From IMG/VR virus record IMGVR_UViG_3300046051_000019, positions 1 to 56,428 of that record: DNA of 56,428 nucleotides; one strand, given 5' to 3'. Positions 305 to 23,943 of the stretch are shown one piece after another. A program made the translations under genes and the position numbers. The number at the start of each line of letters is the position of its first letter. Positions within the stretch are counted from its first letter, which is position 1. This DNA comes from a virus. Below the pieces are notes generated by a model. It was not told the DNA's origin. It ran no database searches and saw nothing but the letters and a program-made list of their open reading frames with translations.

Positions 305-2860
305 GTGCAACGCTACGATCTCCGCTACAGTACTCAACCGGAACTCGTGCTCGAAACGCTCGCGAAGAACGAGAACGGTGACAAGGAGATCGAGACGTTC
401 CACCCGCCGTGTCGCCCATATTGCTATGTCAAGACTGCGAGTGACGTCTCGACTGACAGGAAACGGTACCTCTCTGCACTCATCCAATCCGTTACGGACA
501 ACGATTGCAGGGTACGACGCGACGAGACGCATCGCCACGTGAACGGTGACTTCGAGTTATGGAAAGTCACAGCTGGGATCCCATGGGACATCCGAGATTT
601 CAAACACGGCTTCGAGTACGAGACGTTCGAAGCCGATATCCCGTACGCTCGGCGGGTCATGATAGACGAGGGCATCCAAGCCGATGTACCCGAACCCGAA
701 GACATACTCTACTTCGATATCGAGGTGGATCCGCGCGGCGAGTTCCCAGACCCAGAGGAAGCTACAAAGCAAATACTGTCCATCGCGTGGACCGATGGCG
801 TTGGGAGCGAAGGATTCATCTGTTACGACGACGAGGAGCGCGTGCTCAGGGAGTTCTTCGATCTTCTCGACGACTACTTCGTGCTCGCTGGATGGAACTC
901 GGAGACGTTCGATTGGATGTACGTGTTAAACCGGAAACAAATCCACGATATTTACTACGACGAGTTCGAGATCGTGCATCTCGACTTACAGTACTTATTC
1001 ATGCACGTCAACCGCGAGGAACGGCAATCGTTCGCGCTTGACGCAGTCGGTGAAGACGAGGTCGACATGACTAAAACGATGAGTGAAGAAGACCACGAGA
1101 TGGGCTACGAGGTCCTCTGGCACTGGTTCCAAACCGATCGCGAGACACTCGAAGAATACAACGTCGAGGACGCTCGTATTACAGCTGCTATCGACGAGAA
1201 ATACCGACTAACACGTATCGTGTTCCGGATCTGTCGACGCGGGTACACGCGACCCTCTACGTTGATGTACAACACCGATAGCGGTCAAGTCAACATGGCC
1301 GTGGGAAAAGCGTGTGACGGCGCGATACTCAACCACAACGACGAATCGTTCAACGACAAAGGCAAATATCGAGATCTACACGACTTCCCTGGAGGTCGCG
1401 TCTTCAAACCCATCCCAGGCACGTATAGCGACGTGATGACCGCTGATTTCAGTGGGATGTACCCGGCGATCATCAGGGATTTCAACGTCGGTGTCAAATC
1501 GTGGCTCGACACAAACGATATCACCGAAGCAGTCGAGACGGCGAATCAGCGATTCGACGAGGACGTCACGAAAACCGATATCATCACTGGTATCGGGCCG
1601 GAACCCGAAGACGCGTACGAGACCACGGGGCAACTCGACAACGTCGGTAAAGCTCGCGGATATTTCGTGAAACCCGGTATCGTGGAGTCAGAGATCGCGG
1701 GGTCACTCGACGGTATCGAGTCGCTACGTAAAGAATTCAAGTCGCTCAAGAAACAAGCGAGTAAAGGTTCAACGGAATGGCATCGCCGTAACAACCAAGA
1801 CCGTGGACTCAAAGTGCTCACGAACTCGATGTTCGGCGTCGCCGCGTCACCCGTTCACCGGTACTACGAGCCCGGGATGAGCGAGAACATCACGGAGATC
1901 GGTCAGCACCTCACGTCAGCGTGTAAGCTCTGGGCGGAGGAGAACCTCGAGGAAGTCGAGAAAGTAGTGTACGGGGACACGGACAGTGTACAATTCGAGC
2001 TCGTCGTCGAGAACACCGACGTGGACATGGACGGGTTCGACGAGTACGTCGCTGATTTCGTCGACGAAGTCGGGCCTGACAACGAGCTCGATCTCGATAT
2101 CAATGACCTCGAGGAGTGCTATCGGGCGCGGCGCGTCGCGCAACGAACCGCGTCGAAGCTCAACGACTTCGTCGTGACGTACGTTCGCGACGTGTTCAAC
2201 TCGCCTGGAGACCACATGGAGATGGATCTCGATGACGTGTGGAAACGGTACCACATCACGGATCGAAAGAAGAAGTACGCGGGTGACGTGGTGTACGACG
2301 ACGGTCCGTGCGCGTACCGTAAAATCAAGGGTTTCAAGTGTGTGAAAGCGAATACCTCTGACGCGATCGTCGATTTCCAGGAGGACTTGATCGACGCGAA
2401 GCTCAGTGGCGACGACACGACTGGGATCGTTAGAGAGTACAAAGACAAGTTATTCACGGGTCGATTCGACGAACAGATGGTCCAACATACTCGATTGAAC
2501 CAGATGCCAAACGAATACGAGACGATAATGGCTCATGCACGCGCGGCGAAGAAAATCATCGAGCGAGAAGGCGATCGCGGCGCCGTGAGGACGGGTGACA
2601 AGATAGCGTATCTCAAGTACGGTGACGACACTGGGCAAGTGATGCCGGTCGATAACGGGATCGAGGATTTCAGGCCGAACGAACAGTATTGCTCTACGTG
2701 TAGCGACGTCGTGTTCACGCCACACGGGCACGAGACCACTGGTGGCCCGCGGTTACGGCGGTCTCATTACGCGTACTTGTGGGCGAATCGATTCGAGCCC
2801 ACGATGGAGTTATTGCAAGTAACGTTGTTCGAGCAAACCGGGCTGGAGTCGTTTGCATGA
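305..2860 (+). CDS. polB: Family B DNA polymerase with 3'-5' exonuclease domain
   Basis: Exo motifs FDIEVD, GWNSETFDW and YNVEDA. Pol motifs A DFSGMYPAI, B KVLTNSMFG and C YGDTDS. Confidence 0.95.
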   Translation: MQRYDLRYSTQPELVLETLAKNENGDKEIETFHPPCRPYCYVKTASDVSTDRKRYLSALIQSVTDNDCRVRRDETHRHVNGDFELWKVTAGIPWDIRDFKHGFEYETFEADIPYARRVMIDEGIQADVPEPEDILYFDIEVDPRGEFPDPEEATKQILSIAWTDGVGSEGFICYDDEERVLREFFDLLDDYFVLAGWNSETFDWMYVLNRKQIHDIYYDEFEIVHLDLQYLFMHVNREERQSFALDAVGEDEVDMTKTMSEEDHEMGYEVLWHWFQTDRETLEEYNVEDARITAAIDEKYRLTRIVFRICRRGYTRPSTLMYNTDSGQVNMAVGKACDGAILNHNDESFNDKGKYRDLHDFPGGRVFKPIPGTYSDVMTADFSGMYPAIIRDFNVGVKSWLDTNDITEAVETANQRFDEDVTKTDIITGIGPEPEDAYETTGQLDNVGKARGYFVKPGIVESEIAGSLDGIESLRKEFKSLKKQASKGSTEWHRRNNQDRGLKVLTNSMFGVAASPVHRYYEPGMSENITEIGQHLTSACKLWAEENLEEVEKVVYGDTDSVQFELVVENTDVDMDGFDEYVADFVDEVGPDNELDLDINDLEECYRARRVAQRTASKLNDFVVTYVRDVFNSPGDHMEMDLDDVWKRYHITDRKKKYAGDVVYDDGPCAYRKIKGFKCVKANTSDAIVDFQEDLIDAKLSGDDTTGIVREYKDKLFTGRFDEQMVQHTRLNQMPNEYETIMAHARAAKKIIEREGDRGAVRTGDKIAYLKYGDDTGQVMPVDNGIEDFRPNEQYCSTCSDVVFTPHGHETTGGPRLRRSHYAYLWANRFEPTMELLQVTLFEQTGLESFA

Positions 2861-3767: not shown

Positions 3768-3944
3768 TCAGTTCTCTCCGCAAGCGGCCATGTAGCGCAG
3801 CGTCGCAGTGATGAGCCCGTCGTAGCGCTCCGCGGCTGATTTCTGTTTTGCTGCGTCGAGACCGTCTTCGTGGATCACGGTGACCATGAATCGGATGTGG
3901 TACGTCTCGAATTCTTCGCCGTCAGCGAATGTGTGTGCGTTCAT
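3768..3944 (-). CDS. Hypothetical small acidic protein
   Basis: ATG at 3944 lies directly behind the conserved leader with a GGAGG box. The longer ORF to 4175 only translates the leader and promoter. Confidence 0.6.
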   Translation of the reverse strand: MNAHTFADGEEFETYHIRFMVTVIHEDGLDAAKQKSAAERYDGLITATLRYMAACGEN

Positions 3945-4005
3945 CGTTGGGACCTCCTTTCCATTTAGACTAATGGCCGGTATCACAATAAGTCTTTCTC
4001 TTACA
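3945..4005 (-). promoter_or_regulatory. Conserved promoter+leader cassette, copy 1
   Basis: Minus strand reads TGTAAGAGAAAGACTTATTGTGATACCGGCCATTAGTCTAAATGGAAAGGAGGTCCCAACG then ATG. Confidence 0.75.
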
Positions 4006-4020
4006 GATACACTTATTACC
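4006..4020 (+). promoter_or_regulatory. Divergent TATA-like box (ACACTTATTACC)
   Basis: Centre lies about 27 nt upstream of the GTG at 4042. Confidence 0.4.
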
Positions 4021-4041
4021 GTCCGGTCCAAACAAATCCAT

Positions 4042-4533
4042 GTGCAACTATTCGCGTTCCACAAAAACACCGCGCTGTGCGCGCAATGGCTCTGCGACAA
4101 ACACGTCGTCAAGATCCCGACCGAAGCAGTGCAAATCCTCAACACCGCGCTACACGTCAACGGGTGTGACGACACGTTCTACAAACCAACGCACACGCGA
4201 CACCCCATCGTGCAATGGACAGCTGACTCGTTGATGAACTGGCGCTGGGCTCGCTTGTACGCGTACGCCGTCGGTGGCGAGTACACGAATCGCTACGACA
4301 AATCGCACACGTCGACCCAAAAACTACGCGACTGGCGATACGGCACAGCGGCGCCGTACGAGTACTTCGACGACGTCCAGTTCACTCCGCCACCGCGTGC
4401 GTTTGATTACGAGTCCGATGCCGATTCAGTGTGGCTTGCGTATCGCGACTACTACCGCGACTACAAAATCGATGCGATGGACGTGCGTTACGATCGCGGT
4501 CGACAGGCTCCCGAGTGGCTGTTTGAGGACTAA
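4042..4533 (+). CDS. Conserved viral protein with an LCDKHVVK...YKPTH..HP motif. Possibly related to the pyrimidine-dimer DNA glycosylase fold; uncertain.
   Basis: N-terminus reads QLFAFHKNTALCAQWLCDKHVVKIPTEAVQIL...YKPTHTRHPIVQW. The GTG start is inferred from promoter spacing. Confidence 0.5.
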   Translation: MQLFAFHKNTALCAQWLCDKHVVKIPTEAVQILNTALHVNGCDDTFYKPTHTRHPIVQWTADSLMNWRWARLYAYAVGGEYTNRYDKSHTSTQKLRDWRYGTAAPYEYFDDVQFTPPPRAFDYESDADSVWLAYRDYYRDYKIDAMDVRYDRGRQAPEWLFED

Positions 4534-4550
4534 CGTTCACAAAGACAGAC

Positions 4551-4566
4551 AGAGAAAGTTTTATTG
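4551..4566 (+). promoter_or_regulatory. BRE/TATA box AGAGAAAGTTTTATTG
   Basis: Lies about 30 nt upstream of the ATG at 4593. Confidence 0.45.
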
Positions 4567-4592
4567 TCTATCCTGTCCAACTCGAAAACGCA

Positions 4593-5612
4593 ATGCCTGG
4601 ATACCAATTGGCGCATACGTTCGAAGGGCTAGCAGAGTTTCGTGAAACGTTGCCACAGTTGGCACACGCTTCATCGCATCCAGTCTACATCGATCTCGAT
4701 AGTCAATACGGTGAAGAGACGAGTAGTCTGTCTAACGCCGTGCAAGTTGAACATCAAGGTGTATACAATAACCGGGACGACAGGCTCGCGTACATCGGCA
4801 CCGACAAATACAGGATCACGCAACACGAAGAAGTACTACGCGTCATCGACGACGCCGTCGGGCAAACCGTTGGCGAGATCGACATCGGTCAAATCCGTGA
4901 CTTCGGTGAACGCATCGACGGCATGCTCACACTCGAAGGGCACAGCGTCGACGTCGAGGAACTCGTCGACGACGGCTACGTCCCACCAGAAGGCGAAGTC
5001 ATGACAGATCGAGCCGAGGAGTTCCAGGGTTTCGGTGAACACGACGGCACGGTGCGCGACGTCCTCGGCGTCGGTGTCAGGTTCGCTAACTCGTTCGACG
5101 CGTCAGAGCGGATCCGCGTCGAAACCATGGGATATCGCTACATCTGCCAGAACTGGATGGTCTGGGGCGAGGAAACCATCGGGGAGTTCACTCAGTTACA
5201 CATCGACGAGCTCAGTCAATCCGACGTCGAGACCTTGATCTTCGACGTGCTCGAACAACGATCCGAAGTCGAAGGGCTCATCGTGGACTCCATCCAGGAC
5301 GACGACTACCCGTTGACCTGGGCGATGCCAGCGCTCGACGACGCCGGGTTCGGCCCGAATTACCAGAAACGCATCCTCAAGAAACTCCGAGACTACGGCG
5401 CCGTCGACGACGAGTTCCGGCGCTGGGACTTGTACAACGCGGTCACGGAGTACCTCGACCACGACACGATGCAACTCGGCGACGACGGCGTGAACCCCAA
5501 CGTGTACGATCGTCACCAAGGACGAGCGATCCAGATCCTCATGGAAGAAATCGACTCGCCGAGCGACAACGCGCTCGACGCGTCCCAAGAGGCGCTCGAG
5601 GAACTCGCATGA
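4593..5612 (+). CDS. DUF932-like phage/plasmid protein
   Basis: Core RFANSFDASERIRVETMGYRYICQNWMV resembles the NSxDxS...R.xC.N signature of DUF932. Confidence 0.6.
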   Translation: MPGYQLAHTFEGLAEFRETLPQLAHASSHPVYIDLDSQYGEETSSLSNAVQVEHQGVYNNRDDRLAYIGTDKYRITQHEEVLRVIDDAVGQTVGEIDIGQIRDFGERIDGMLTLEGHSVDVEELVDDGYVPPEGEVMTDRAEEFQGFGEHDGTVRDVLGVGVRFANSFDASERIRVETMGYRYICQNWMVWGEETIGEFTQLHIDELSQSDVETLIFDVLEQRSEVEGLIVDSIQDDDYPLTWAMPALDDAGFGPNYQKRILKKLRDYGAVDDEFRRWDLYNAVTEYLDHDTMQLGDDGVNPNVYDRHQGRAIQILMEEIDSPSDNALDASQEALEELA

Positions 5613-5947
5613 CCCTTGACGGGGACGACTACAGGGCGTTTCTCGAGAAAGTCGGTGACGACGTCGCGGAAGAGTTCAACGAGGAGCTCTTCGGTCACGA
5701 CGCGCATCGACAGATCGAGCTCCCGGACTCGATCGCGAAAGTAGAGCTCCACCACTTATTGAGCGCGCTCATCACCGCTCACAACCACGCGAGTGATAAC
5801 GGTGATTTCTACGATTGCGTGATGTACCACGCGCTCATCACGGAGTTCGCGGAGCTCGACGAGGAACTGTACCGTGAATTCGAGGAAGCACAGAAACGCG
5901 ACCACTCGCTCACCGCGGTTCTCGGCATGGCTGGTGGGCAGGTATGA
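5609..5947 (+). CDS. Hypothetical protein
   Basis: ATGA coupling to the upstream gene. Acidic composition. Confidence 0.6.
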   Translation: MTLDGDDYRAFLEKVGDDVAEEFNEELFGHDAHRQIELPDSIAKVELHHLLSALITAHNHASDNGDFYDCVMYHALITEFAELDEELYREFEEAQKRDHSLTAVLGMAGGQV

Positions 5948-6405
5948 GCGACGACGACGTGTCGCTCGACGACTTCGATTTAACCGCTGGGATGGAATTC
6001 GACATCGACGTCGAGGACATCGAGGAGATGTCGAATCAGCTCCGGCAAGCAGAAGCGTTCGACGTCGAGGAAGCGAGCTCGGAGCGACTCGCAGAGTTCT
6101 CGAGTGCGCTCAAGGAACTCGCGGATCACGTCGAGGACGCTCGGAAAGACGTGTTCGAAGCGCAGCTCGACAAGCGAGTCGAGGTCGACGAAAACGTCGG
6201 ACCGTTGGTGAAGCGTCATGGCAGTCGACGATACGTCGAGAATCGTGAACGCGCGATCCGCGCGTTGGAAGCGAACGACATCGATCCAGTCGCCGCGATG
6301 AAGTTCAACGCGAAAGACCTCGAGGAGATACTTCGAGAACACGGTCTCGACCCACGCGAGCACGTGTCGACGACGGAGTACGAGTACTTCCGGAGGCGCC
6401 GCTGA
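5944..6405 (+). CDS. Hypothetical acidic protein
   Basis: ATGA coupling. 153 aa. Confidence 0.6.
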   Translation: MSDDDVSLDDFDLTAGMEFDIDVEDIEEMSNQLRQAEAFDVEEASSERLAEFSSALKELADHVEDARKDVFEAQLDKRVEVDENVGPLVKRHGSRRYVENRERAIRALEANDIDPVAAMKFNAKDLEEILREHGLDPREHVSTTEYEYFRRRR

Positions 6406-7052
6406 TGGCTCGGAGATCGGCTCGGTTCTTCGACTTGATGGAGAGGCTCGACTACGACCACCCGGATAACCCACCGGGGAATCGGTTCGGTCGTGTCAGG
6501 TGGGAGAAAACGGTACCGAAAGAAGCGATGGTCGAGATAGCTGGAAAACTCGGCATCGACACGAGTGGCGACAAGCCTGAACTCAGGCAACGTATCAGAG
6601 AGCACTCGCACTCGCACGGTAGCGAGAAATCACCGGAGTCGAAACTGTCAACGAATGACCTCTTACGCATCCGTCTGGCACTCAATCGAGCGCTGCGTCT
6701 CGATGCTAGCGAAGTCGACGTTTACGACGATTTGCCGAAGTGGGGCGGTAACCTCGTCGTCACGACTGAAGAGCACGACGAGCTCGAAGTCGAAGTCGTC
6801 GATAAAGGCAAAGCTAGTTGGAAGGACCATTGGGGCGACGAACCGAACTACAGTGAGTACGAGCTGTACAAACTCGCAGGGCGTCACTTCGAAGACGGCC
6901 GGCGTCATCGCGTGATGGTGCTTCACGACCTCGATTACGATCAGTTCAACTATCGTGGTTCGGTCGTGCTCGAGAAGCAAGTCGGCTATGGCCCGTATCA
7001 ACGCTGGAAGAAGCAGTGCTACGTTCGCGAGGTGATGGTCGATGACCAGTGA
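6405..7052 (+). CDS. Hypothetical protein with a possible SAP-like motif
   Basis: TGATG coupling. EAMVEIAGKLGIDTSGDKPELRQRI resembles a SAP helix-extended-helix. Confidence 0.55.
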   Translation: MARRSARFFDLMERLDYDHPDNPPGNRFGRVRWEKTVPKEAMVEIAGKLGIDTSGDKPELRQRIREHSHSHGSEKSPESKLSTNDLLRIRLALNRALRLDASEVDVYDDLPKWGGNLVVTTEEHDELEVEVVDKGKASWKDHWGDEPNYSEYELYKLAGRHFEDGRRHRVMVLHDLDYDQFNYRGSVVLEKQVGYGPYQRWKKQCYVREVMVDDQ

Positions 7053-7786: not shown

Positions 7787-7936
7787 ATGGCGTATCAATG
7801 CTCGGCACCGAACTGTGACAACGACGTCATCTTGGACGAGACACCGCATTGGACACTAACAGAAACGATTACACTCGAACGGTTTTGCAGTCACGGTTGC
7901 GCGAAAACGTATCTCGAACAAGTGATCCAGACATGA
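7787..7936 (+). CDS. Small zinc-binding protein (TRASH/FCS-like Cys pattern)
   Basis: MAYQCSAPNCDN...CSHGCAKTY. The start could also be 7781. Confidence 0.5.
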   Translation: MAYQCSAPNCDNDVILDETPHWTLTETITLERFCSHGCAKTYLEQVIQT

Positions 7937-8532
7937 CGCTCATCGTGCTCGAAGGCGCGAGCCGTAGCGGCAAATCAACGATCAGAGACCGGCTCGTCGA
8001 GCGACGTCCAAAATGGGTCACGTGGAAAGGCACTAATTTGATGCGTGAAGGGATCGGTGAGAGCTGGATCGATTACCGTGAGCGTTACCACGAAGCACTA
8101 CATCGGCTCTACGAGCTCAACCCGGAAAACGTTATCCTCGCGGATCGAGGGTTCACTGATTGCGTGTACAACTCCGACGAGCAAATCCGCGAGGAGTTCC
8201 GTCGCTTAGCGGCGTGTTACGGTGACGCGTACGTCTTGTACTTCTTCCCGGGTGATCTCCGATGGTCGAACCAGCGCTTCGACGAAACCGATTCCTCGGA
8301 GCGTCACGCTCACTTGGTGCACGAGTCTGAGGGTCGCGACGTCCTCTTCGAGCGCGGTACTCGAGATCAACCGAAGCTCAACCGCGTTCTTAATGAGTAC
8401 GAAGAGCTATTGTCGATGTTCCCGTATCAGCACATCGACACTGATGAACTCGACGTCGAGACGGCGACGAACGTCGCGGAGCAAGCGATACTGGACTGGT
8501 ACGGGACGGGTGAACACGACCCGGACGTGTGA
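7933..8532 (+). CDS. P-loop (deoxy)nucleoside-monophosphate kinase, thymidylate-kinase-like
   Basis: MTLIVLEGASRSGKST Walker A and an ADRGF motif. ATGA coupling. Confidence 0.65.
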   Translation: MTLIVLEGASRSGKSTIRDRLVERRPKWVTWKGTNLMREGIGESWIDYRERYHEALHRLYELNPENVILADRGFTDCVYNSDEQIREEFRRLAACYGDAYVLYFFPGDLRWSNQRFDETDSSERHAHLVHESEGRDVLFERGTRDQPKLNRVLNEYEELLSMFPYQHIDTDELDVETATNVAEQAILDWYGTGEHDPDV

Positions 8533-9190: not shown

Positions 9191-9598
9191 ATGCCAGACG
9201 CAGACGAACTAGACGAACAGTACACCGCGGACGAGCTCCGGCGCGGCCCAGCGATCGGCGTCACAGGTCGCTGGGACATGACGAAGCAAGAACTCATCGA
9301 CGCCATCACCGAGGAGACCGGTGTCGAGCGAGTCACCGACGAAGCGTTTCAAGGCGTGCACGATGTCGAGCCTGGCGACACCGTCGAGATGAACCATCTC
9401 CAAGCCGTGCTCACCGTCACCGACGTCGAGCGAAGCGAACACCGCGTCGCGATCGAGATGGAAACGACTCACGGCGGTCGCCACAGACTCGTGTACGACG
9501 AGTTCGAGATCCCGCACCTCGAGCGCTGGCGTGCGAACGACGACAAGTGGATGAAAAACAGTACTGACCCGGAGTACTTCCGAGTCGTTCAGGACTGA
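9191..9598 (+). CDS. Hypothetical protein (possible Rho_N/SAP-like motif MTKQELIDAITEETG)
   Basis: ATG lies 8 nt after the GGAGGTCCC box. Confidence 0.6.
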   Translation: MPDADELDEQYTADELRRGPAIGVTGRWDMTKQELIDAITEETGVERVTDEAFQGVHDVEPGDTVEMNHLQAVLTVTDVERSEHRVAIEMETTHGGRHRLVYDEFEIPHLERWRANDDKWMKNSTDPEYFRVVQD

Positions 9599-10248
9599 AA
9601 CGCAATTTCTTTCGCGTCACCGAGCTGCTCTCGATAAATATGAGCGGACGTCATGACGTGCTCGTGGCGACCGATCTCAGCATCGATCTCCTCTGCGAGC
9701 TCGTGGTGGTAATGACCGAATACCCCGACGTCCATCGGGTACGCGAACATCAAGTCCTGTGACCTGTTATACGTGAAGCAATGTAAGTACGTCCCGTTCC
9801 CGTTCTCGTCCGCGCGGATCATCCACTGCACGCGGCTCGTGCACGGCGAGTCCGGGGCACCGCCGAATTGGCTCGTCGCTTTCCGGGTACCGTGGTCACG
9901 GGTTAAGAGCTCGATCCATTTCTCCCAATCCGCGCTAATTCGTTTCCTGATGACGTCTTCGTAGAACGTCCCGTCGTCGAGATCCAGTCTCGTGTCGAGC
10001 TCACTCGATGCTGTGAACTCGGGTTCCTCGCCGCTCCGCACGGTTTCTATTTCGCTCCATAAGTAGTCGTGTCGTGGGTCGTCTTCGCTCCAGACGACGT
10101 ATTCATCCGGGGTGTGCGCGGTGACGCAGTAGTTCTGTAGTTCGAGCGTCTCGAAGCCCCGGGTCTCGACGCGTTGTCCGTGTTGGATAACTGATCGAAG
10201 CACTGATGGGTAGGAGTCGGCGACGTTCGCGACGTATAGTTCGTGCAC
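9589..10248 (-). CDS. Thymidylate-synthase (ThyA) family pyrimidine C5 transferase, paralogue 1. Asp at the base-specificity position suggests a dCMP substrate.
   Basis: SPCTSRVQWMI carries the catalytic Cys. YNRSQDLMFAYPMDV aligns with YQRSxDxxLGxPFNI, with N replaced by D. The GTG start lies 27 nt after AAACTTAAT. Confidence 0.7.
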   Translation of the reverse strand: MHELYVANVADSYPSVLRSVIQHGQRVETRGFETLELQNYCVTAHTPDEYVVWSEDDPRHDYLWSEIETVRSGEEPEFTASSELDTRLDLDDGTFYEDVIRKRISADWEKWIELLTRDHGTRKATSQFGGAPDSPCTSRVQWMIRADENGNGTYLHCFTYNRSQDLMFAYPMDVGVFGHYHHELAEEIDAEIGRHEHVMTSAHIYREQLGDAKEIAFQS

Positions 10249-10327
10249 GGTTCGTGGTAAGGAACGAGTAACATTAAGTTTTTCTCTTACAGTTACATTT
10301 ATCAATACTCGGTGTTTAACACCGTAC
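10249..10327. promoter_or_regulatory. Divergent promoter region with two outward TATA boxes
   Basis: Minus strand reads TGTAAGAGAAAAACTTAAT and plus strand ACATTTATCAAT. Each lies about 27 nt from its start codon (10248 and 10328). Confidence 0.5.
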
Positions 10328-10945
10328 ATGAGGTCCGTATGGCAGAACTTTCAAGACGGCGTGTCTCACTGCTCGGAGTGCCCCGGGCAAGAAGCACCGT
10401 ACCCACTTGGCGGTATCGGTAACCATGGCGCCGACGTGATGCTCGTCGGGCAAGAACCAGCGTACAACGTCGACGACGACACGGTTACCACGGAGATGAA
10501 CTGGCTCGACGCAGTAGCTACGATGATACAGAACCGTCGTGACTCCATGAACCCGCTCTGGAAACACATGATGAACGTCGCTGTCGCGGCGGAGTGCTCG
10601 CCAACCGATCTCTACTTCACGAATATCAGCAAATGTTCAACAGACAATACATCGTTTAGCGACTGCCTCGAACATTGCAGAGGGTACTTCCCACGCGAAG
10701 TCGCACAGGTCGATCCAGACGTCATGCTACTATACGGTGGGAAAGTCATCAGTACGGTGTTCGACATGTTCGACATCGAGTGGAGCGGGTCAGTTGGTGA
10801 CGTGCACGGCGAGATCCATGAAACGTCGAGCCTGAAACTCGCCGCGTTCTACCACTGGGGCTACATTTATAGACAGGGGGATCTAACGTCTTACCGCGAA
10901 GAGGTGACCAACGTTGTCCAAGACACTGTATCAGCGGAGAACTGA
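10328..10945 (+). CDS. Uracil-DNA glycosylase superfamily protein (family 4/5-like)
   Basis: N-terminal CSEC, motif MLVGQEPAYN in place of GEAPG/GLAPA, then YFTNISKC and HWGY. Confidence 0.6.
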   Translation: MRSVWQNFQDGVSHCSECPGQEAPYPLGGIGNHGADVMLVGQEPAYNVDDDTVTTEMNWLDAVATMIQNRRDSMNPLWKHMMNVAVAAECSPTDLYFTNISKCSTDNTSFSDCLEHCRGYFPREVAQVDPDVMLLYGGKVISTVFDMFDIEWSGSVGDVHGEIHETSSLKLAAFYHWGYIYRQGDLTSYREEVTNVVQDTVSAEN

Positions 10946-10948
10946 TCA

Positions 10949-12193
10949 ATGAGCATCCTCGAAACCGATCTCGCGGACGTTACCCCTGGGGGTCACGCGG
11001 CTCAAGCACTGCTCCACAAGTACGGTCTCGGCGCGCTCTTCGCCGCTAATGTATTAGGTGCCGGGTCAATATACATCTTATCGCAGACCGGCGCCTCAGT
11101 CGGGTTCACGTTGCTCTGGGTGCTACCGCTCGCGTTCGCTGTGGACATGGTGATGCACGACATGTCGTCGCGACTCGCGGTTAGGGATCGACCCCTAATG
11201 GAGTACATCAGTGACGCGCTCCACGAGCTCACTGGGAGTACACGGATCGGCGTCGCGTATGCCATACTGATGGCGCTCGTCATGCAACTCTGGGCCGTGG
11301 CGAACTACGCCGTAGCCGGCGCCGCGTTCTCGTGGTTCACAGGTGTCAACGTGTACGTCGCGATCCTCGCCGCGTCAAGCATCGGTGTCGTGCTCGTGAT
11401 GACGCGCACGTACAACTATATCGAAGCGGTTATCAGTGCGTTGCTCGTAACCGTGTTCGTTTCCTACGCCGCGTTGTCATTCGGGTTAGACGTCAACACG
11501 GCTGATCTCGTCAGTGGGTTCGTGCCCGGCGACGTGTCGAGCGCGACACTCGTCATCGCGATGCTCGGCACCACGATTTACTATCCGAACTTTTTTATCC
11601 AGAGCTCGATGCAACCGACAAAGGAATGGACGTCACTGAGAAAGTATCGTCGCGACAACGCGGTAGGTATCGCGTTCGCGATACTGATCTCAGTCGGGAT
11701 GCTCGTCGTCGCAGCTGTCGCGCTCGAGCCCGGTGAGCTATCCCTCACAGATCCAGCGATACCGCTCGTCGACTCCGTTGGCGCGTGGACGCTTCCCGTG
11801 TTCATGGCAGCTGTGCTCGCCGCGTCGTTCACATCAGCCACTGGGACGCTATTCGGTTCGTCGTTCGCGGTGCCTCAATCGCTCGGGAAGAAAACGATCT
11901 TTGGCGACACTGTGTTCACCGTGGTCACCGTCGTGCTGATCGGTGTCAGCTCGGTGCTATCCATCTTGGCGCTCGAGTTCACGGAGATGACACCGGTCCG
12001 GATGGCTATCACGATGCCAGCGTTGAACGGCGCGATCTTTCTCCCAGTGACGATCTTAGCGATGTACAACGCGACGGCGTACGAGATGGACGCGTGGCAA
12101 AAAACCGTCTCGGCGATCGCTGTCGTCGTCATGTTCGCGGGATCGATCCTCACAGCCGAGTCGCTGTTCGACACAGTGGTGAGCTTCCTATGA
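10949..12193 (+). CDS. NRAMP-family-like integral membrane transporter with non-canonical substrate-site residues
   Basis: About 11 hydrophobic segments. GLGALFAANVLGAGSIYILSQTGASVGFTLLWVL aligns with NRAMP TM1, with GAGS in place of DPGN. TM6 has YYPN in place of MPHN. Confidence 0.65.
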   Translation: MSILETDLADVTPGGHAAQALLHKYGLGALFAANVLGAGSIYILSQTGASVGFTLLWVLPLAFAVDMVMHDMSSRLAVRDRPLMEYISDALHELTGSTRIGVAYAILMALVMQLWAVANYAVAGAAFSWFTGVNVYVAILAASSIGVVLVMTRTYNYIEAVISALLVTVFVSYAALSFGLDVNTADLVSGFVPGDVSSATLVIAMLGTTIYYPNFFIQSSMQPTKEWTSLRKYRRDNAVGIAFAILISVGMLVVAAVALEPGELSLTDPAIPLVDSVGAWTLPVFMAAVLAASFTSATGTLFGSSFAVPQSLGKKTIFGDTVFTVVTVVLIGVSSVLSILALEFTEMTPVRMAITMPALNGAIFLPVTILAMYNATAYEMDAWQKTVSAIAVVVMFAGSILTAESLFDTVVSFL

Positions 12194-12513
12194 CTGACCC
12201 GTATATCCGACAGGTACAAGAAGCCACGCACGCGTGGCGTATGGAGAAATGGCCAGATCTCACGCCGCTCGCGCAACTCGCTGGCACCGACGTCGAGGTA
12301 TCGGAGCTCCTCGAGATGGAGGTGAAGAGCGAGTATTACGACGACGACTGGGCGAGCGAGGAACGATTCAAGGAAGAGATCGGAGACGTCATTATTTACT
12401 TGATGGGGTACTCGTCACTCCGTGGGTTCGACGTCGACGAGTGCGTCGAAGCGGCGCTCGATAAGAACGAGGACCGAGACTGGGAGGAACACATGGAAGC
12501 ACCTGAGCGATGA
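12190..12513 (+). CDS. MazG-like all-alpha NTP pyrophosphohydrolase
   Basis: EVSELLEME...EEIGDVIIYLMGY...ALDKNEDRDW. ATGA coupling to the transporter gene. Confidence 0.7.
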   Translation: MTDPYIRQVQEATHAWRMEKWPDLTPLAQLAGTDVEVSELLEMEVKSEYYDDDWASEERFKEEIGDVIIYLMGYSSLRGFDVDECVEAALDKNEDRDWEEHMEAPER

Positions 12514-12650
12514 CTCGGTGTCCAATCGGTGGTTGTGACAATGCGGTGGAGCCCGGGCCGAATTGTTACGTCGAAGTCGAGCTCAGTAGTGAATCCGTGA
12601 AGAAACTGGTCTGTGAAGACTGCGCGGAGACGTTCAAGGACCATGTTACT
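12510..12650 (+). CDS. Small zinc-ribbon protein (46 aa)
   Basis: MTRCPIGGCDN...CEDCAETF. ATGA coupling. Below the ORF-track length cutoff. Confidence 0.5.
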
Positions 12651-13116
12651 AAGTGACGTATCGATCCGGGAGCGAATCAGTGAAGATATCGTCGTTACGC
12701 CTGAACCGGTAGAGGAACAGTTCCAACCGGCGTCGTTCGACGTCAGGCTCGGAGAGCAACTCTACCACGCGGCGACGGACACGACGAGTGTCGACGGGAA
12801 TAGCCACGTACTCGAGCCACGGGAAGCGTACATCGGGCACACGATGGATTACGTCGAGTTACCGCTCGACGTAGCTGCGCAGTTGACTGGCCGGAGTAGT
12901 ATCGGTCGTCAAGGCGTCATTATCCATAAAACCGCTGGGTGGATAGATCCCGGTTTCCGCGGCGAGATCACGCTCGAGCTCTATAATTTCAGTGAAGACC
13001 CCGTTGTTCTCGACGTCGGTAGCCGCGTCGGTCAACTAGTGTTCTTCCAACTCGACCAAGAGAGCACGGGGTACGATGGACAATTTCAAGATCAACTGGG
13101 CCCGACGGCACGGTGA
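12643..13116 (+). CDS. dcd: dCTP deaminase / dUTPase family protein
   Basis: GRSSIGRQG and AGWIDPGFRGEITLELYN signatures. Confidence 0.8.
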   Translation: MLLSDVSIRERISEDIVVTPEPVEEQFQPASFDVRLGEQLYHAATDTTSVDGNSHVLEPREAYIGHTMDYVELPLDVAAQLTGRSSIGRQGVIIHKTAGWIDPGFRGEITLELYNFSEDPVVLDVGSRVGQLVFFQLDQESTGYDGQFQDQLGPTAR

Positions 13117-13197: not shown

Positions 13198-13413
13198 ATG
13201 GACGACATCGCACCAGCGGAGAAAACCAAGGAGTACAGTCAAGCGAAGACGTACGTCGTCACCGAAGCCGAGACCGAAGCAGATGCTCGACGCAGTGCGG
13301 AGACGCAATATCGCGACGAGATCGAGCACCAATTCCTCATCAAGGACTTACAGGCCTTCGTTCGAACGCACCCAAAGGGCTACGAGGTCGCGGTCGTCGC
13401 GAGACTACAGTGA
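13198..13413 (+). CDS. Hypothetical protein
   Basis: 71-aa ORF located after the promoter box. Confidence 0.55.
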   Translation: MDDIAPAEKTKEYSQAKTYVVTEAETEADARRSAETQYRDEIEHQFLIKDLQAFVRTHPKGYEVAVVARLQ

Positions 13414-15218
13414 TGTTCGAATACGATATCGTCGAGAACGAGTACGGGCCACAACTCGCCGTGTCGTTCCAATACGACGAACGAACAATCGAACAGATCA
13501 AGTCACTGAGCTGGGAGACGACGCATCGAGCATGGTCAGAGGACCACGACGCGTGGCTCATCGATTACACCGAGCAGTCGCTCGAAGAATTCCAAGACCA
13601 AATGAACGTCGTTATCCCGCCGCGATACACGCCCAGCGAGGACCACAGCGGCGTGGTTCATGCAGTGGTTCCAGACGAATACGCGTGGTTCTTCCTTCAA
13701 GACCCGTCGAGCGAGATCGATGATTTACTCTGGCAAGAGCTCGCGTACTGGAACGACGCGTACAAGGAACACCAACAACAATGGATTCGACTCTACGATA
13801 CAGATACCCATGGCGCACCGATCGGTCTCCTCGACAAGACACGGAAGCTCGTCGAGGCGAGTGGCTACGAGTTCACAGTTACGTGGAACGGTGACCGAAA
13901 GGGCGGCGCGGTCCAGCTCGACTGGGAGTTCCCCTCGGAGCTCCGCGGATACCAACGAGACGCGATCAACGCCGTGAAAGCGAATGACGGAGGTATCATC
14001 GCGTTACCAACCGGGACCGGGAAAACCGTCACGGCGATGAAACTCCTCGAGGAAGTGTCGCTCGAGATGGGGCGAGGTATCGTTCTCGTGCACACACAAG
14101 AACTGCTTTATCAATGGGAGAGTGAGATCCGCGATGCGCTACGCGTGGAGCCCGGCGTGATTGGCGATGGGAACTGGAGCGAGGGCCCAGTTACGATCGC
14201 GGTGATGCAGACGTTGATGAGCCGTGGCGTGGACGAGCTCGACGAGTCGTATGGCGTCGCGGTGTTTGACGAGTGTCACAGGACATCAGCGGCGGACACG
14301 ATGCACGACATCGGGATGGATTTAAACGTCGCGATGCGTGTCGGGCTCAGCGCGACGCCGTGGCGTCGGATCGAGGGCGAGGAACTCATGATCGAGGGCG
14401 CGGTTGGCGGCGAGGCGCACACCGTTACCGCCGAGGAAATGATCGACGCCGGGTATCTCTCAGAACCGCGATTCGACGTCATCGACCCTCGAGACTACGG
14501 GCGTGTCGACACCGCTAATACCGGTGAAGCGTATCACGACGCGTACCGTCGCTGTATCAGTCTCACCGCGACGAGGAACCGCGCGATCGCGGCGAAAACC
14601 GCGGAGCTCGCCAACCTAGGGTACCAAGTGTTGGTTAACGTGGATCGTATCAAGCACGGGCGTCTCCTCGAGTACGCATTGAACCGAGACGTCGATCACG
14701 ACGACGTCATTGACGCCGTTGACTTCGACGACGCGCAATCGAGGCGCGAGTTCATCAGCGCGTTGCAAGCGACGAGTCGAGTCGCTGATACGAACGCCGA
14801 GTTCATGCACGGCGCTGATACCACTAAGATCCGTCAGGATACACTCGACGAGTTCCAAAACGGTGACCTCGATATCCTCGTCTCGACGCTATTGAGGGAG
14901 GGCGTCGATATCCCGAACATTAGCGCTATCGTTCTCGCGCAAGCAGGGAAAAGCGACGTCAAGCAAATCCAGGTCATCGGGCGAGCGCTACGACCGAAGA
15001 ACGGCGACCACGCTCGCATCGTGGACGTGAACGATACTGGTCGATACTTTCGCAGTCAATTCGAGAAGCGCATAACCGCGATGCGGGAATACTATGGAGA
15101 GTATGGACCGTCTTTGAGTGACTTCGATGTCGAGCCGACATCGGATGATGGACCACCCGAGTCGCGGAGCTTAACTGACGAGCCACCGGAGTCGTTCGAG
15201 GACCTCTATGATAACTGA
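13413..15218 (+). CDS. Superfamily 2 DNA helicase (Rad25/XPB- or type III res-like)
   Basis: ALPTGTGKT, VFDECHR, GLSATPWR and QVIGRALR motifs. TGATG coupling. Confidence 0.85.
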   Translation: MFEYDIVENEYGPQLAVSFQYDERTIEQIKSLSWETTHRAWSEDHDAWLIDYTEQSLEEFQDQMNVVIPPRYTPSEDHSGVVHAVVPDEYAWFFLQDPSSEIDDLLWQELAYWNDAYKEHQQQWIRLYDTDTHGAPIGLLDKTRKLVEASGYEFTVTWNGDRKGGAVQLDWEFPSELRGYQRDAINAVKANDGGIIALPTGTGKTVTAMKLLEEVSLEMGRGIVLVHTQELLYQWESEIRDALRVEPGVIGDGNWSEGPVTIAVMQTLMSRGVDELDESYGVAVFDECHRTSAADTMHDIGMDLNVAMRVGLSATPWRRIEGEELMIEGAVGGEAHTVTAEEMIDAGYLSEPRFDVIDPRDYGRVDTANTGEAYHDAYRRCISLTATRNRAIAAKTAELANLGYQVLVNVDRIKHGRLLEYALNRDVDHDDVIDAVDFDDAQSRREFISALQATSRVADTNAEFMHGADTTKIRQDTLDEFQNGDLDILVSTLLREGVDIPNISAIVLAQAGKSDVKQIQVIGRALRPKNGDHARIVDVNDTGRYFRSQFEKRITAMREYYGEYGPSLSDFDVEPTSDDGPPESRSLTDEPPESFEDLYDN

Positions 15219-15236
15219 CAGAGAAAGACTTATACC
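15217..15236 (+). promoter_or_regulatory. GACAGAGAAAGACTTATACC promoter driving the tRNA and the structured RNA
   Basis: TATA centre lies about 27-30 nt upstream of the tRNA 5' end at 15261. Confidence 0.55.
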
Positions 15237-15260
15237 GTTACGTGTTTAACTTACACTCGA

Positions 15261-15334
15261 TGCGAGGTAGGACAGCTAGGCTACTCCGCACGGCTCATGC
15301 CCGTGAAACCGATGGTTCGAGTCCATCCCTCGCA
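15261..15334 (+). tRNA. tRNA with CAT anticodon (Met, or Ile if C34 is modified)
   Basis: Hand-folded cloverleaf. Acceptor stem TGCGAGG/CCTCGCA. U8 is present and the D loop has GG. Anticodon stem CACGG/CCGTG with loop CTCATGC. T arm GATGG-TTCGAGT-CCATC. Confidence 0.85.
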
Positions 15335-15339
15335 ACTGC

Positions 15340-15447
15340 CCGGCAACCGTGTCAGTTACTTCGAAAGCTCCCGAACACCCTGACACGGATTCACCCGGGC
15401 TTATGGGAACGACGAAGGGTTCGAGTCCCTCCGTTCTCACTTGCCGG
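15340..15447 (+). ncRNA. Structured tRNA-like RNA module A (three-way junction)
   Basis: Closing stem CCGGCAA/TTGCCGG. A 9-bp hairpin pairs 15347-55 with 15380-88. The minihelix is GGGAACG-acg-AAGGG-TTCGAGT-CCCTC-CGTTCTC at 15405-38. No credible ORF. Confidence 0.55.
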
Positions 15448-15548
15448 AGCGAAAACAGCTCGCCGTCTCGGAAGGGACACATCCAGTGACCGCGTACCGT
15501 CGTGCGGACCTGGAGGACTCGCGGGCACACGACGGGCTCCGGCGCACT

Positions 15549-15613
15549 CGGCAAGGGAACCGGTTACTTCGCATCTAGCGCGAGTGACTCGCGTTCGAAT
15601 CGCGACTTGTCGT
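15549..15613 (+). ncRNA. D-arm-less tRNA-like module B with a 7-nt loop AUCUAGC
   Basis: Acceptor stem CGGCAAG/CTTGTCG. Long stem pairs 15563-72 with 15580-88. T arm TCGCG-TTCGAAT-CGCGA. Confidence 0.4.
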
Positions 15614-15688
15614 GCACAGCACGGCAACGTGGTCTAACACGGCATAAGACACTAACACCCGGTTCCCACTCATCCGAGGTACATACCA

Positions 15689-15940
15689 ATGAACGATTTC
15701 AACGTCGAGGTTAAGAAAGACGACGAGCCACGATTACACGTCCCGAGTGACGCGAGATCCGAGCTCAGCGAGGACGAGATAGCGTCCATCACGCGCCAAG
15801 CGATGGATCGATTCGGCGTCGAGACCATCCCGGAGCTCATCGTCACGACGGAGAAAACCATCGAGGAAGAATACGTTCTCGGGACAGTCGAAATCGTCGA
15901 GGACGGCGTCGTGTTCACCGCGAAGGACGAGAGGTTCTAA
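15689..15940 (+). CDS. Hypothetical acidic protein
   Basis: 83-aa ORF immediately upstream of the TROVE gene. Confidence 0.6.
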   Translation: MNDFNVEVKKDDEPRLHVPSDARSELSEDEIASITRQAMDRFGVETIPELIVTTEKTIEEEYVLGTVEIVEDGVVFTAKDERF

Positions 15941-15942
15941 CC

Positions 15943-17478
15943 ATGGACTTGAACTCGTCTAAAACAGAAGCGCGGAACCTCGCTGGTGGCCATCGCCACG
16001 AGATCAATGACCCACTGGAAGCGCTTCGAATGGTCATGATTACCAACTTACTCGAGGACACGTACTACGAGGACGACTCCGAGTCGCTCGAGAAACTCGT
16101 CGAGCGCTTTCAAGCAGCTGCGAACGTGGATCCCGAGTTCCCGTTGCGACTCGCCGCGTGGGCGCGACGAGACGCATACGTTCGAGACGTCCCGCAAGTA
16201 TTACTCGTGCTCAGCGCGCGCCACGACGACGCGAAGCACTACGTTCGACGATACGCGAGCCACGTGATCGATCGAGCCGACGAGCTCTGCACGACGCTCG
16301 CGTTTAACAACACAGTGGCTGGTGACGGCCCGGGTGACTTCTCCGCGACGATTCCATGGGTCTTGAAACGAGCCATTGCTGATGTGATCGAGGACGCGTC
16401 GTTCGACGCGTACCAGTACGCGAAGTACCGACAAGGGCACCGAGCGGTCTCGATGCACGACGTGTTCAACCAAGTGCACCCATATGGGTACGAGGACAGT
16501 CCAGAACCCGTCGAGGGACAATCCGAGATCGCGAATAGGATAACCAAGGGAGGGAAGGACGCGTATCCAGACGTACAGTCTCTCAGCCAGAGACGTACGT
16601 GGGAAGACACCATCAGTGAAGCGGGGCAAGACGGCGACGTCACGGCTGATGACTGGCGCCGCGTGCTCGACGACATGGGGTTATTCGCCCGAGTCCGGAA
16701 CTTACGGAACATGCTCGAAGCTGGGCTGACTGGTGAAGAAATCCTCGAGGACGCGAGCGACGAGTGGATCCGGAACAGTCAACTATACCCGTTCAGGTTT
16801 TACCAAGCACGGAAAGCACTCAAGGGCGCTAGTGAGATGGATCGCTACGTGCACGAGTGGCTTGAGAACGCGGTGAACGTCGCGTGTGAAACCGTGCCAG
16901 ACGAGCTCGTACACACAGCGACGCTCGTGGACCTGTCGGGCTCGATGCAACAACGGGTGTCGAACCGGAGCGACCTTAGTCGCGTCGAGATCGCGGCGTT
17001 GTTCGGCGCGATGCTCGGTCAGAGACGCTCGGATGTCATCGGGTTCGCCGATACAGCGACTCGTGTCCCCGTTGACCCGCTCGAGAACAGTGTGCTCTCG
17101 TTGCAAGAAGCGATCGTGTCCACGGATGTCGGGAGTAGCACGTTCGCTCACAAGGCGCTCGAGTTCATCGCGGACGAGTCTACTGATGGAGAAGTCGTTC
17201 CTGATAGAGTCGTGGTGTTCACTGATTTCCAGATCTGGGAGAGACAGCGGTACGGTAACGACCCGAACGCGTTCCGTGGTGCGTGGGAGATGCTTCGCGA
17301 GATGCACTCCGAGGAACCGTATTTGTACATCGTGGACTTGGCGAGTTACGGCGAGATCAAGCTCCCAGAGAACTACCCGGGCGTCACGAGACTGCAGGGA
17401 TGGAACGACGGCGTGTTGGATTACATCTGGCACGCCGAGAACAGTTTACTAGACGACATTCAAGCGTATGACCCATGA
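15943..17478 (+). CDS. Ro60/Rsr-like TROVE-domain protein with C-terminal vWA domain
   Basis: N-terminus has NLAGGHRHEINDPLEALRMV..TYYED..DPEFPLRLAAWARRDAYVRD, which is TROVE-like. The vWA MIDAS is DLSGSM. Confidence 0.7.
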   Translation: MDLNSSKTEARNLAGGHRHEINDPLEALRMVMITNLLEDTYYEDDSESLEKLVERFQAAANVDPEFPLRLAAWARRDAYVRDVPQVLLVLSARHDDAKHYVRRYASHVIDRADELCTTLAFNNTVAGDGPGDFSATIPWVLKRAIADVIEDASFDAYQYAKYRQGHRAVSMHDVFNQVHPYGYEDSPEPVEGQSEIANRITKGGKDAYPDVQSLSQRRTWEDTISEAGQDGDVTADDWRRVLDDMGLFARVRNLRNMLEAGLTGEEILEDASDEWIRNSQLYPFRFYQARKALKGASEMDRYVHEWLENAVNVACETVPDELVHTATLVDLSGSMQQRVSNRSDLSRVEIAALFGAMLGQRRSDVIGFADTATRVPVDPLENSVLSLQEAIVSTDVGSSTFAHKALEFIADESTDGEVVPDRVVVFTDFQIWERQRYGNDPNAFRGAWEMLREMHSEEPYLYIVDLASYGEIKLPENYPGVTRLQGWNDGVLDYIWHAENSLLDDIQAYDP

Positions 17479-23361: not shown

Positions 23362-23943
23362 GTGTGCTGGATGACTGCGCGGCGCGGTGACTCCCCGCTC
23401 GCCTCGGGGCTCGACGCGTGCCAACGACACGAGGACGCGAGCGGCGGGCACTCCTGGGGCTACGCGATCAGTGATGGCGAGAAACTCGAGACGTTCACAC
23501 AAGTCGGGACCATCGACACGTTCGCGACGAGCCCCGAGGCCGAGGTCGCGCTCGTACACACGCGACTCGCGACTCGCGGCGAGATCACGGAGGAGAACGC
23601 GCACCCGTTCTTGATTCACTGGCACGAACCCGGGGGTGCGTCGCGCACAGCGGCGCTCGCGCACAACGGCACGTGGCACGACGCTCCACACGATGGCCGT
23701 GCGGACTCGTGGCACATGGCCCGTGAACTCGAAGCACGCCTCGAGGACGACGCCGAGCTCCGCGACGCAGTCGAGTCGCTTGGCGCGCTCACGAGTGAAA
23801 CGTTTATCGTCGTCACTGATATGGCCCGGGCGCTCGTGTACTCGGGGCGCTTCACGGTCACCACTGATGACGTCGAGTCCCCGCGAGTCGTGCAGTCGAG
23901 CGAGCTCGACGAGATCCCGACTGGCTCGACCCTCGAGCTCTAA
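23362..23943 (+). CDS. Class II (Ntn-type) glutamine amidotransferase
   Basis: The GTG start is followed by Cys2, the Ntn nucleophile. HTRLATRGEITEENAHPF motif. Confidence 0.7.
   Translation: MCWMTARRGDSPLASGLDACQRHEDASGGHSWGYAISDGEKLETFTQVGTIDTFATSPEAEVALVHTRLATRGEITEENAHPFLIHWHEPGGASRTAALAHNGTWHDAPHDGRADSWHMARELEARLEDDAELRDAVESLGALTSETFIVVTDMARALVYSGRFTVTTDDVESPRVVQSSELDEIPTGSTLEL

Follow-up and report, generated by a model that had tools for sequence, protein, structure and literature searches.

Replacement of cytosine before replication, by enzymes of the thymidylate synthase (TS) fold, is well documented in bacteriophages. In phage T4, the dCTPase gp56 removes deoxycytidine triphosphate (dCTP), the TS-fold enzyme gp42, annotated as deoxycytidine monophosphate (dCMP) hydroxymethylase, modifies dCMP, gp1 is the viral deoxynucleoside monophosphate (dNMP) kinase, and the dCMP deaminase cd turns some cytosine into uracil for dTMP. 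gp56 matches Pfam dUTPase_2 (dimeric-dUTPase family), which we take to belong to the same all-alpha NTP-pyrophosphatase superfamily as MazG. Other cytosine-specific TS-fold enzymes are MilA, the CMP 5-hydroxymethylase of mildiomycin biosynthesis in Streptomyces rimofaciens (PDB 5JNH/5B6D), which makes an antibiotic precursor and not a DNA precursor; the flavin-dependent 5-hydroxy-dCMP synthases RB69 gp48, DLP3 gp80, and HY126 AfhB (PDB 9IQC/9IQU); and the dCMP methyltransferase of Xanthomonas phage XP12, a 5-methylcytosine (5mC) phage. For archaeal viruses, the only case known to us is a 1988 report of 5mC in the halobacterial virus ΦN, and we know of no gene assignment there and of no published ΦN genome sequence. 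Here we analyze the IMG/VR virus record IMGVR_UViG_3300046051_000019 over positions 1 to 56,428 (this whole stretch of 56,428 bp is called the window below), which is the genome of a tailed virus of haloarchaea that has not been cultured. The replication module of this virus probably encodes a T4-like pathway for modifying cytosine at C5 before replication, at the mononucleotide level, with 5-hydroxymethylcytosine (5hmC) as the probable base. At the center of the predicted pathway are two divergent TS-fold proteins, paralogue 1 and paralogue 2.

Both proteins score above the Pfam PF00303 cutoff (Table 1) and share 23% sequence identity. A sequence-only reading of the window had already described the two genes as ThyA paralogues that keep the catalytic Cys and carry Asp in place of the uracil-reading Asn, and this description held, as did the coordinates that it gave for all listed genes. 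Paralogue 1 has the Cys in the motif SPCTS (Cys136, codon 9841-9843) and the Asp in PMDV (Asp173, codon 9730-9732); in paralogue 2 the motifs are VACTL (Cys144, codon 50587-50589) and PYDV (Asp175, codon 50494-50496). The start of paralogue 1 was placed at 10248, as a longer open reading frame (ORF) to 10329 is not supported by the homologues, which have 194 to 246 aa and mostly about 200 to 230 aa. With HMMER against solved structures and MAFFT against Escherichia coli ThyA and T4 gp42, the Cys fell on C146 and the Asp on N177 (E. coli numbering) in both paralogues, and a check of the numbering returned the published positions E. coli C146/N177 and T4 C148/D179. In the HMMER alignments, Asp173 of paralogue 1 stands opposite the Asn of Enterococcus faecalis ThyA, and Asp175 of paralogue 2 opposite the Asn of Bacillus subtilis ThyA and D186 of MilA, with the numbering offset checked. 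By these alignments the Asp of both proteins is the equivalent of E. coli N177, T4 D179, and MilA D186, at the base-contacting position and not beside it. Neither the Cys nor the Asp varies among the 30 aligned clusters (of 64) of paralogue 2 homologues, among 14 paralogue 1 homologues, or among 4 further divergent paralogue 1-like genes, so the Asp is not a chance substitution.

Published work provides several residue diagnostics for this superfamily. N177D marks a cytosine substrate and has been found to be the determinant in T4 gp42, MilA, N177D mutants, and the MetaGPA study; positions 177 and 147 also show the largest differences when modified metaviromic contigs are compared with unmodified ones. 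At the position of E. coli L143, an acidic residue correlates with hydroxymethyl products and a bulky hydrophobic residue with methyl products. The flavin- and O2-dependent 5-hydroxy-dCMP synthases are recognized by D169N, all of the tested ones having Asn there. Finally, S167 together with R126 goes with a preference for deoxyribose, and A176 together with K133 of MilA with a preference for ribose (CMP).

Both paralogues carry D143/C146/T147/S167/D169/D177, together with R126-K127 in paralogue 1 and R126-R127 in paralogue 2. At positions 143, 147, 169, and 177 they thus read D, T, D, and D, and the same four residues are found in T4 gp42 (whose D145/C148/T149/D179 is the signature of both paralogues) and in the TS homologues of phages VPE25 and ATCCB. 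The Mosigvirus 5-hydroxylase reads E, T, N, and D; the XP12 enzyme N, P, D, and D; and E. coli ThyA L, H, D, and N. The TS homologues of PaMx11 and Sonora, which are presumed dUMP hydroxymethylases, read D, N, D, and N, and the Sonora gene lies inside a thymidine-hypermodification cluster. C146, E58, R166, S167, D169, H207, and Y209 are conserved in both paralogues, with C146, E58, R166, D169, H207, and Y209 invariant in the two families. D143 (Asp141 in its own numbering) is invariant among the paralogue 2 homologues, and the same position is either D or N in the paralogue 1 family. With D143 and D169 retained and S167 and R126 present, the signature, which is that of T4 gp42 and MilA, predicts both paralogues to be folate-dependent dCMP 5-hydroxymethylases.

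Predicted structures agree with this assignment, and the best fold matches of both proteins are cytosine-specific members of the family. The AlphaFold2 (AF2) model of paralogue 2 (pLDDT 92.5) was superposed by Foldseek on MilA with TM scores of 0.83/0.80 over 310 columns, while any ThyA was clearly poorer at about 0.6/0.7; MilA is also the best sequence match (1.1e-23). Paralogue 2 further shares with MilA the catalytic Cys (C155), the acidic residue at 143, and a C-terminal helical extension, of 101 residues in paralogue 2, but has the deoxy-type Ser and Arg in place of A176 and K133. The paralogue 1 model (pLDDT 85) matched the phage HY126 dCMP hydroxylase AfhB best by E value (8.5e-15) and MilA with the highest TM score (0.79), and AfhB is its best sequence match in the PDB (2.2e-5). 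Like the 5-hydroxy-dCMP synthases, paralogue 1 is short, has a shortened C terminus, just 14 residues past the Y209 equivalent, and has D177, an acidic residue at 143, and T147. Among isolate phages, the top-listed match of paralogue 1 is ATCCB (28.7% identity, 9e-11), and the best E values of paralogue 2 come from the VPE25 group (32.5% identity, down to 1e-26). These phages, Enterococcus phage VPE25 and Lactobacillus phage ATCCB, differ from the window virus in that they infect bacteria and have one TS homologue at the locus, which adjoins, or is one gene from, a beta-glucosyltransferase gene. When a profile of paralogue 1 was run against 1.84 billion representative proteins, D177 was present in all of the 150 best matches and D143 in 143 of them, and paralogue 1 is thus a small halovirus-restricted offshoot of a large Asp-type TS branch. 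The identity to T4 gp42 is low, paralogue 2 aligning with it over only about 80 to 100 residues (phmmer E value of 7.7e-7, 34% over 83 aa).

The most distant paralogue 2 homologue found (P0064, 36% identity) is bacterial and lies on contig JAUJOL010000020.1 of GCA_030447625.1 (L008), beside genes for a carbamoyltransferase, a PhyH dioxygenase, an aminotransferase, and a HAD hydrolase. This cluster looks like a MilA-type nucleoside-antibiotic gene cluster.

Table 1. Features of the window discussed in the text
Feature	Coordinates	Strand	Evidence
Paralogue 1, ThyA superfamily, 219 aa	9589..10248	-	Pfam PF00303 2.4e-10, 40.4 bits vs cutoff 24.3
Paralogue 2, MilA-like, ThyA superfamily, 308 aa	50092..51018	-	Pfam PF00303 5.9e-19, 68.7 bits vs cutoff 24.3
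P-loop (d)NMP-kinase-like protein, virus-specific	7933..8532	+	phrog_761 "thymidylate kinase" 1.2e-8; weak AAA_33 0.006
Uracil-DNA glycosylase (UDG)-superfamily protein, family-4-like	10328..10945	+	Pfam UDG 33.2 bits vs 24.3; divergently transcribed from paralogue 1
Nramp-family divalent-metal transporter	10949..12193	+	Pfam Nramp 1.7e-30; stop overlaps MazG start
MazG-like all-alpha NTP pyrophosphohydrolase	12190..12513	+	Pfam MazG 25.8 bits vs 22
dCTP deaminase (Dcd), possibly bifunctional Dcd-Dut	12643..13116	+	TIGR02274 131 bits vs 92.8; Pfam DCD 1e-35
Family B DNA polymerase (PolB)	305..2860	+	Pfam DNA_pol_B 1.4e-24; between both paralogues on the circular map
Pyr_excise-like protein	3880-4533		Pyr_excise 1.6e-4, just below cutoff; strong phrog_624 match
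Helicase	13410-15218		
Gap between helicase and TROVE gene	15218-15943		two tRNA-like elements, 15261-15336 and 15540-15613
TROVE (Ro60-like) + vWA protein	15943-17478		
Class-II (Ntn) glutamine-amidotransferase-like protein	23362-23943		Pfam GATase_4 1.6e-5; phrog_26360 1.3e-38

The genes around paralogue 1 belong largely to nucleotide metabolism. The sequence-only reading had placed MazG and Dcd in one overlapping operon next to this paralogue; both genes are near it, but the only overlap is that between Nramp and MazG, a 130-bp gap precedes Dcd, and the UDG-superfamily and Nramp genes had been missed. Dcd passes the NCBIfam equivalog cutoff (TIGR02274, Table 1) and matches dCTP deaminases in the PDB down to 4.9e-27. 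The MazG-like protein has a weak match to dCTP pyrophosphatase 1 (E value of 2e-3). As for the kinase, which the same reading had called a dNMP kinase, the P-loop gene is present and its family matches are weak, the family profile giving a marginal match to guanylate kinase in the PDB (0.02). Its P-loop (GxSxSGKST) and DR motif are invariant in a family of 29 homologue clusters, all metagenomic. A role as a 5-hydroxymethyluracil DNA kinase of thymidine hypermodification was considered and dropped, as both TS homologues are of the Asp type and, unlike the locus of phage Sonora, there are no aGPT-pyrophosphorylase-like genes. Among the window ORFs scanned, we found no DNA methyltransferase, in agreement with the earlier reading, and no ThyX, Asn-type ThyA, dihydrofolate reductase (DHFR), or glycosyltransferase.

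The UDG-like protein matched NCBIfam Arch_udg (1.6e-10) and stayed far below the cutoffs of the NCBIfam family-4 models. GQEP replaces the GE(A/G)PG of family 4, and its cysteines are suggestive of an Fe-S cluster. On an unrelated IMG/VR contig (L013), a UDG-like gene lies about 2.4 kb from a TS homologue of 31% identity. The window protein with a weak match to Pyr_excise (T4 endonuclease V-like pyrimidine-dimer glycosylase) would be the second DNA-glycosylase-like gene of the module. The Nramp gene is the best-conserved gene of the module in L009 and L010, with 78% identity against 54 to 59% for its neighbors.

The module is conserved as a set among related haloviruses. Both paralogues occur together with the kinase, UDG, Nramp, MazG, and Dcd genes in at least three lineages, with PolB 53 to 100% identical. 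On two viral contigs of 72 and 69 kb, the paralogue 2 homologues have 53% and 49% identity, a divergent paralogue 1-like gene (41 to 42%) stands directly beside the kinase gene, and the UDG, Nramp, MazG, and Dcd genes come after these two; as both contigs hold both divergent paralogues, the pair has been retained jointly through substantial divergence. All lineages seen have the kinase gene linked with paralogue 1: it adjoins the paralogue 1-like gene in L009, L022, and L023 and is one gene off in L024. In L004, L009, L022, and L024 the UDG-like gene is beside paralogue 1; in L023 it lies about 1.5 kb farther downstream. The 49-kb relative L024 has a canonical thymidylate kinase (Pfam 3e-35) besides the paralogue 1-linked kinase, which makes it unlikely that the latter is a dTMP kinase. 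In more distant haloviruses (PolB 31 to 34% identical), the paralogue 2 homologue has a MazG homologue, a Dcd homologue, or both within 5 kb at seven of the nine loci having enough flanking sequence, and in L031 the gene order is MazG, Dcd, paralogue 2. This recurrent linkage is the strongest contextual argument for a joint function of MazG, Dcd, and the long TS homologue. In the 69-kb relative (L023, ERR11420198_27176), two GT4 glycosyltransferase genes are found in the replication module at 4423-6497, between ERCC4 and DUF932, the first matching Pfam "GT4-conflict" with 31.1 bits, which hints that the modified base of this relative carries a hydroxyl handle.

The two TS-fold genes of the window also belong to one module, although 40 kb separate them on the contig. 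In a Logan assembly of the same virus, the tail genes, paralogue 2, PrimPol, PolB, and ERCC4 run uninterrupted, and in an IMG/VR genome 96 to 98% identical to the window the paralogues are 15.7 kb apart. It follows that the window is a complete genome, about 56 kb in size and circularly permuted, in which the paralogues are separated by about 15 kb; the single replication and nucleotide-metabolism module to which both ThyA-like genes belong runs across the contig ends.

From these genes the following pathway can be proposed. The MazG-like pyrophosphatase would convert dCTP to dCMP and Dcd would convert dCTP to dUTP or dUMP, both draining the dCTP pool. In the two TS-fold enzymes, the catalytic Cys would attack C6 of dCMP and the Asp would read N3/N4 of the cytosine; the methylene of 5,10-methylene-tetrahydrofolate (methylene-THF) would be transferred to C5 and the intermediate hydrated, with 5-hydroxymethyl-dCMP as the predicted product. 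The paralogue 1-linked P-loop enzyme, a putative modified-dCMP kinase, would yield the diphosphate and a host NDP kinase the triphosphate, which the viral PolB would incorporate. We infer in this scheme the substrate dCMP, the addition of a hydroxymethyl rather than a methyl group, the specificities of MazG and the kinase, and the presence of modified cytosine in virion DNA. The earlier proposal that the virus synthesizes a modified dCTP was supported by every sequence-level test run, and it can be refined in favor of hydroxymethylation for both enzymes.

Compared with T4, the predicted logic is the same: dCTP would be removed, dCMP would be hydroxymethylated by a TS fold of the Asp177 type with an acidic residue at 143, a kinase would be supplied by the virus, and some cytosine would be converted to uracil for dTMP. 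The differences are that T4 has one TS-fold enzyme and the window virus two; that T4 uses a dCMP deaminase, whereas the window virus deaminates at the triphosphate level with Dcd; that the kinase is not detectably gp1-like; that no glucosyltransferase was found in the window genome; and that the host is archaeal. An archaeal virus, a co-conserved pair of Asp-type TS homologues, Dcd in place of dCMP deaminase, and a kinase family of its own would thus be the new features relative to the T4 pathway, as far as sequence comparison can tell. Our literature search returned no report matching hydroxymethylcytosine or a dCMP hydroxymethylase in haloviruses or archaeal viruses, and nothing on PDB code 9IQC.

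That both paralogues have the same activity is not the only reading of the pair. The sequence-only reading had suggested two different one-carbon chemistries or substrates, a suggestion on which the shared residue signature is neutral. Paralogue 1 could instead perform another reaction or act on another substrate (hydroxylation, methylation, or a ribonucleotide), so that the DNA would contain two modified cytosines or a single further-derivatized one; we regard this as unlikely. The joint retention of two proteins that have diverged as far as described above speaks for it, as do the invariant changes specific to the paralogue 1 clade (R127K, Q165N, G173A, no W80, and the shortened C terminus). 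In the profile search described above, just five clusters fell into this clade, and the next scores are more than 60 bits lower (107 bits after 173). Its best PDB match by both sequence and fold is a flavin-dependent dCMP hydroxylase, and TS-fold enzymes have already yielded unexpected chemistry. Set against this, the residues D143, T147, D169, D177, and S167 of paralogue 1 are those of paralogue 2 and T4 gp42, and the window showed no genes related to flavins and no extra tailoring genes. The specific case of a 5-hydroxy-dCMP synthase, suggested by best tblastn and PDB matches to Mosigvirus and HY126 enzymes, was rejected as the leading assignment because D169 is kept, both paralogues having RSQD where the Mosigvirus and HY126 enzymes have RSQN. 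Sugar-activation and arabinosyltransferase genes are missing from the window. In the widest form of this reading, paralogue 1 would be a methylase, a hydroxylase that retains D169, or an enzyme for a step that follows the first modification, and this halovirus clade would depend on two nonredundant cytosine-specific TS-fold enzymes, with the UDG-like protein and Nramp in the same system, an idea that we put forward tentatively and with little confidence. If true, two different C5-modified cytosines, or else a new derivative, would be present in the DNA of archaeal viruses.

Methylation by one or both enzymes, with methylene-THF as carbon donor and reductant, would give fully 5mC-substituted DNA as in XP12 and ΦN, and we consider it quite improbable. 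The XP12 enzyme is likewise a TS fold with D177, some paralogue 1 relatives have N143 as it does, and a window that lacks a glycosyltransferase has no enzyme requiring a hydroxyl handle. At positions 143 and 147, however, the window enzymes have the D and T of the hydroxymethylases and XP12 has N and P. XP12 also keeps W80, absent from both paralogues, and a ThyA-like C-terminal tail of 61 residues (...PKPEVIE), whereas paralogue 1 ends shortly after Y209 and paralogue 2 has the MilA-type extension; this comparison is a weak one, as XP12 is a single sequenced reference. In TS enzymology, the closing C terminus is required for the hydride-transfer (methyl-forming) step. The lack of a ThyA-type tail in the paralogues fits hydroxymethylation, since the closing C terminus serves hydride transfer. 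In addition, XP12 has a DHFR gene three genes from its TS and a dCMP deaminase gene adjoining it, and no DHFR gene was found among the scanned ORFs. The precedent of ΦN, which the sequence-only reading had named, is real: complete 5mC substitution exists in a halobacterial virus according to Vogelsang-Wenke and Oesterhelt (1988), as that paper is cited in PMC4284463.

Ordinary nucleotide supply, in which Dcd, ThyA, and a Tmk-like kinase raise dTTP, MazG has a housekeeping or anti-stringent-response role, and the DNA is canonical, is very hard to reconcile with the data. It would suit a virus of 57% GC, below the usual haloarchaeal hosts, which are generally more GC-rich, and the source annotation of paralogue 2 as "thymidylate synthase," but both proteins lack Asn177, a hydrophobic residue at 143, and a ThyA-type tail, the Asp at 177 extends through both families and all 150 nearest relatives, the NCBIfam thymidylate synthase equivalog models give at most 62.5 bits against cutoffs of 108 to 427, and a relative has a canonical Tmk besides the paralogue 1-linked kinase.

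Several observations weigh against T4-like dCMP hydroxymethylation, which we nevertheless favor. It does not account for why two enzymes of one predicted activity are kept. The residue rules are correlative, the D169N rule comes from a limited set, and Asn at position 143 in some paralogue 1 relatives recalls XP12. The substrates given to MazG and the kinase rest on weak similarity, and tailoring genes, glycosyltransferases included, are missing from the window. Published surveys of haloarchaeal tailed viruses describe thymidylate synthase, Dcd, Tmk, and MazG as common, generic nucleotide-metabolism (pyrimidine-synthesis) and counterdefense genes and do not mention cytosine hydroxymethylation, which suits the supply explanation as well. 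Palindromes in the window are moderately depleted (observed over expected, GGCC 0.61, CTAG 0.73, GATC 0.84, and CTCGAG 0.68, with no site absent), so there is no obvious release from restriction pressure, although this test is weak and indirect. The virus is uncultured, and the readings come from sequences and models.

The window has 54 to 62% G+C, encodes acidic proteins, and contains a tailed-virus structural module (portal, Mu-F-like protein, HK97-like capsid, and tape measure). Its large terminase (TerL) has its best identities to those of Halorubrum virus CGphi46 (45%) and Halobacterium virus ChaoS9 (40%). A near-identity DNA search against isolate phages gave no match to the window, and the virus is thus one without a cultured close relative. 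Scans of IMG/VR with single proteins and family alignments found only the one near-identical genome and a few distant loci, and a scan of JGI metagenomes with the paralogue 1 alignment found nothing. In 185,579 reference genomes, no relatives of paralogue 2 and only one distant bacterial TS-like match to paralogue 1 were found, so no provirus or host could be identified.

Some further features of the genome and its relatives were noted. The gap between the helicase and TROVE genes contains a tRNA-Met (Rfam, 52.7 bits) and a "tRNA-Pyl" with anticodon CTA that was called by ARAGORN only, the Rfam tRNA model being silent at an E value of ≤1. The latter could be an odd amber-suppressor tRNA, or a tRNA-like Y-RNA module partnering the Ro-like protein; TAG is the stop codon in 8 of the 36 window genes. 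The TROVE and vWA protein is of an RNA-quality-control type and is kept in relatives at 55 to 63% identity. The helicase is intein free in the window, whereas in near-identical relatives (L004, 3805-6810; L005, 3170-6175) it is split by an intein, with Hint and Intein_splicing matches and an extra ORF of 234 aa. The ERCC4 neighborhood of L004 has an additional NUMOD3 homing-endonuclease-like gene. A glutamine-amidotransferase-like protein is encoded in the window as well (Table 1).

The locus and its virus clade offer a candidate, testable enzymatic basis for cytosine replacement in haloviruses. The labels "thymidylate synthase," "MazG," and "Dcd" in halovirus genomes may conceal a DNA modification pathway. 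One member of the co-conserved pair comes from a small, uncharacterized clade of short TS-fold proteins, and the superfamily has recently given unexpected flavin-dependent hydroxylases. If true, cytosine modification of this kind would bear on the evasion of restriction and CRISPR in haloarchaea, and on how hypersaline viromes behave in modification-sensitive library preparation or sequencing.

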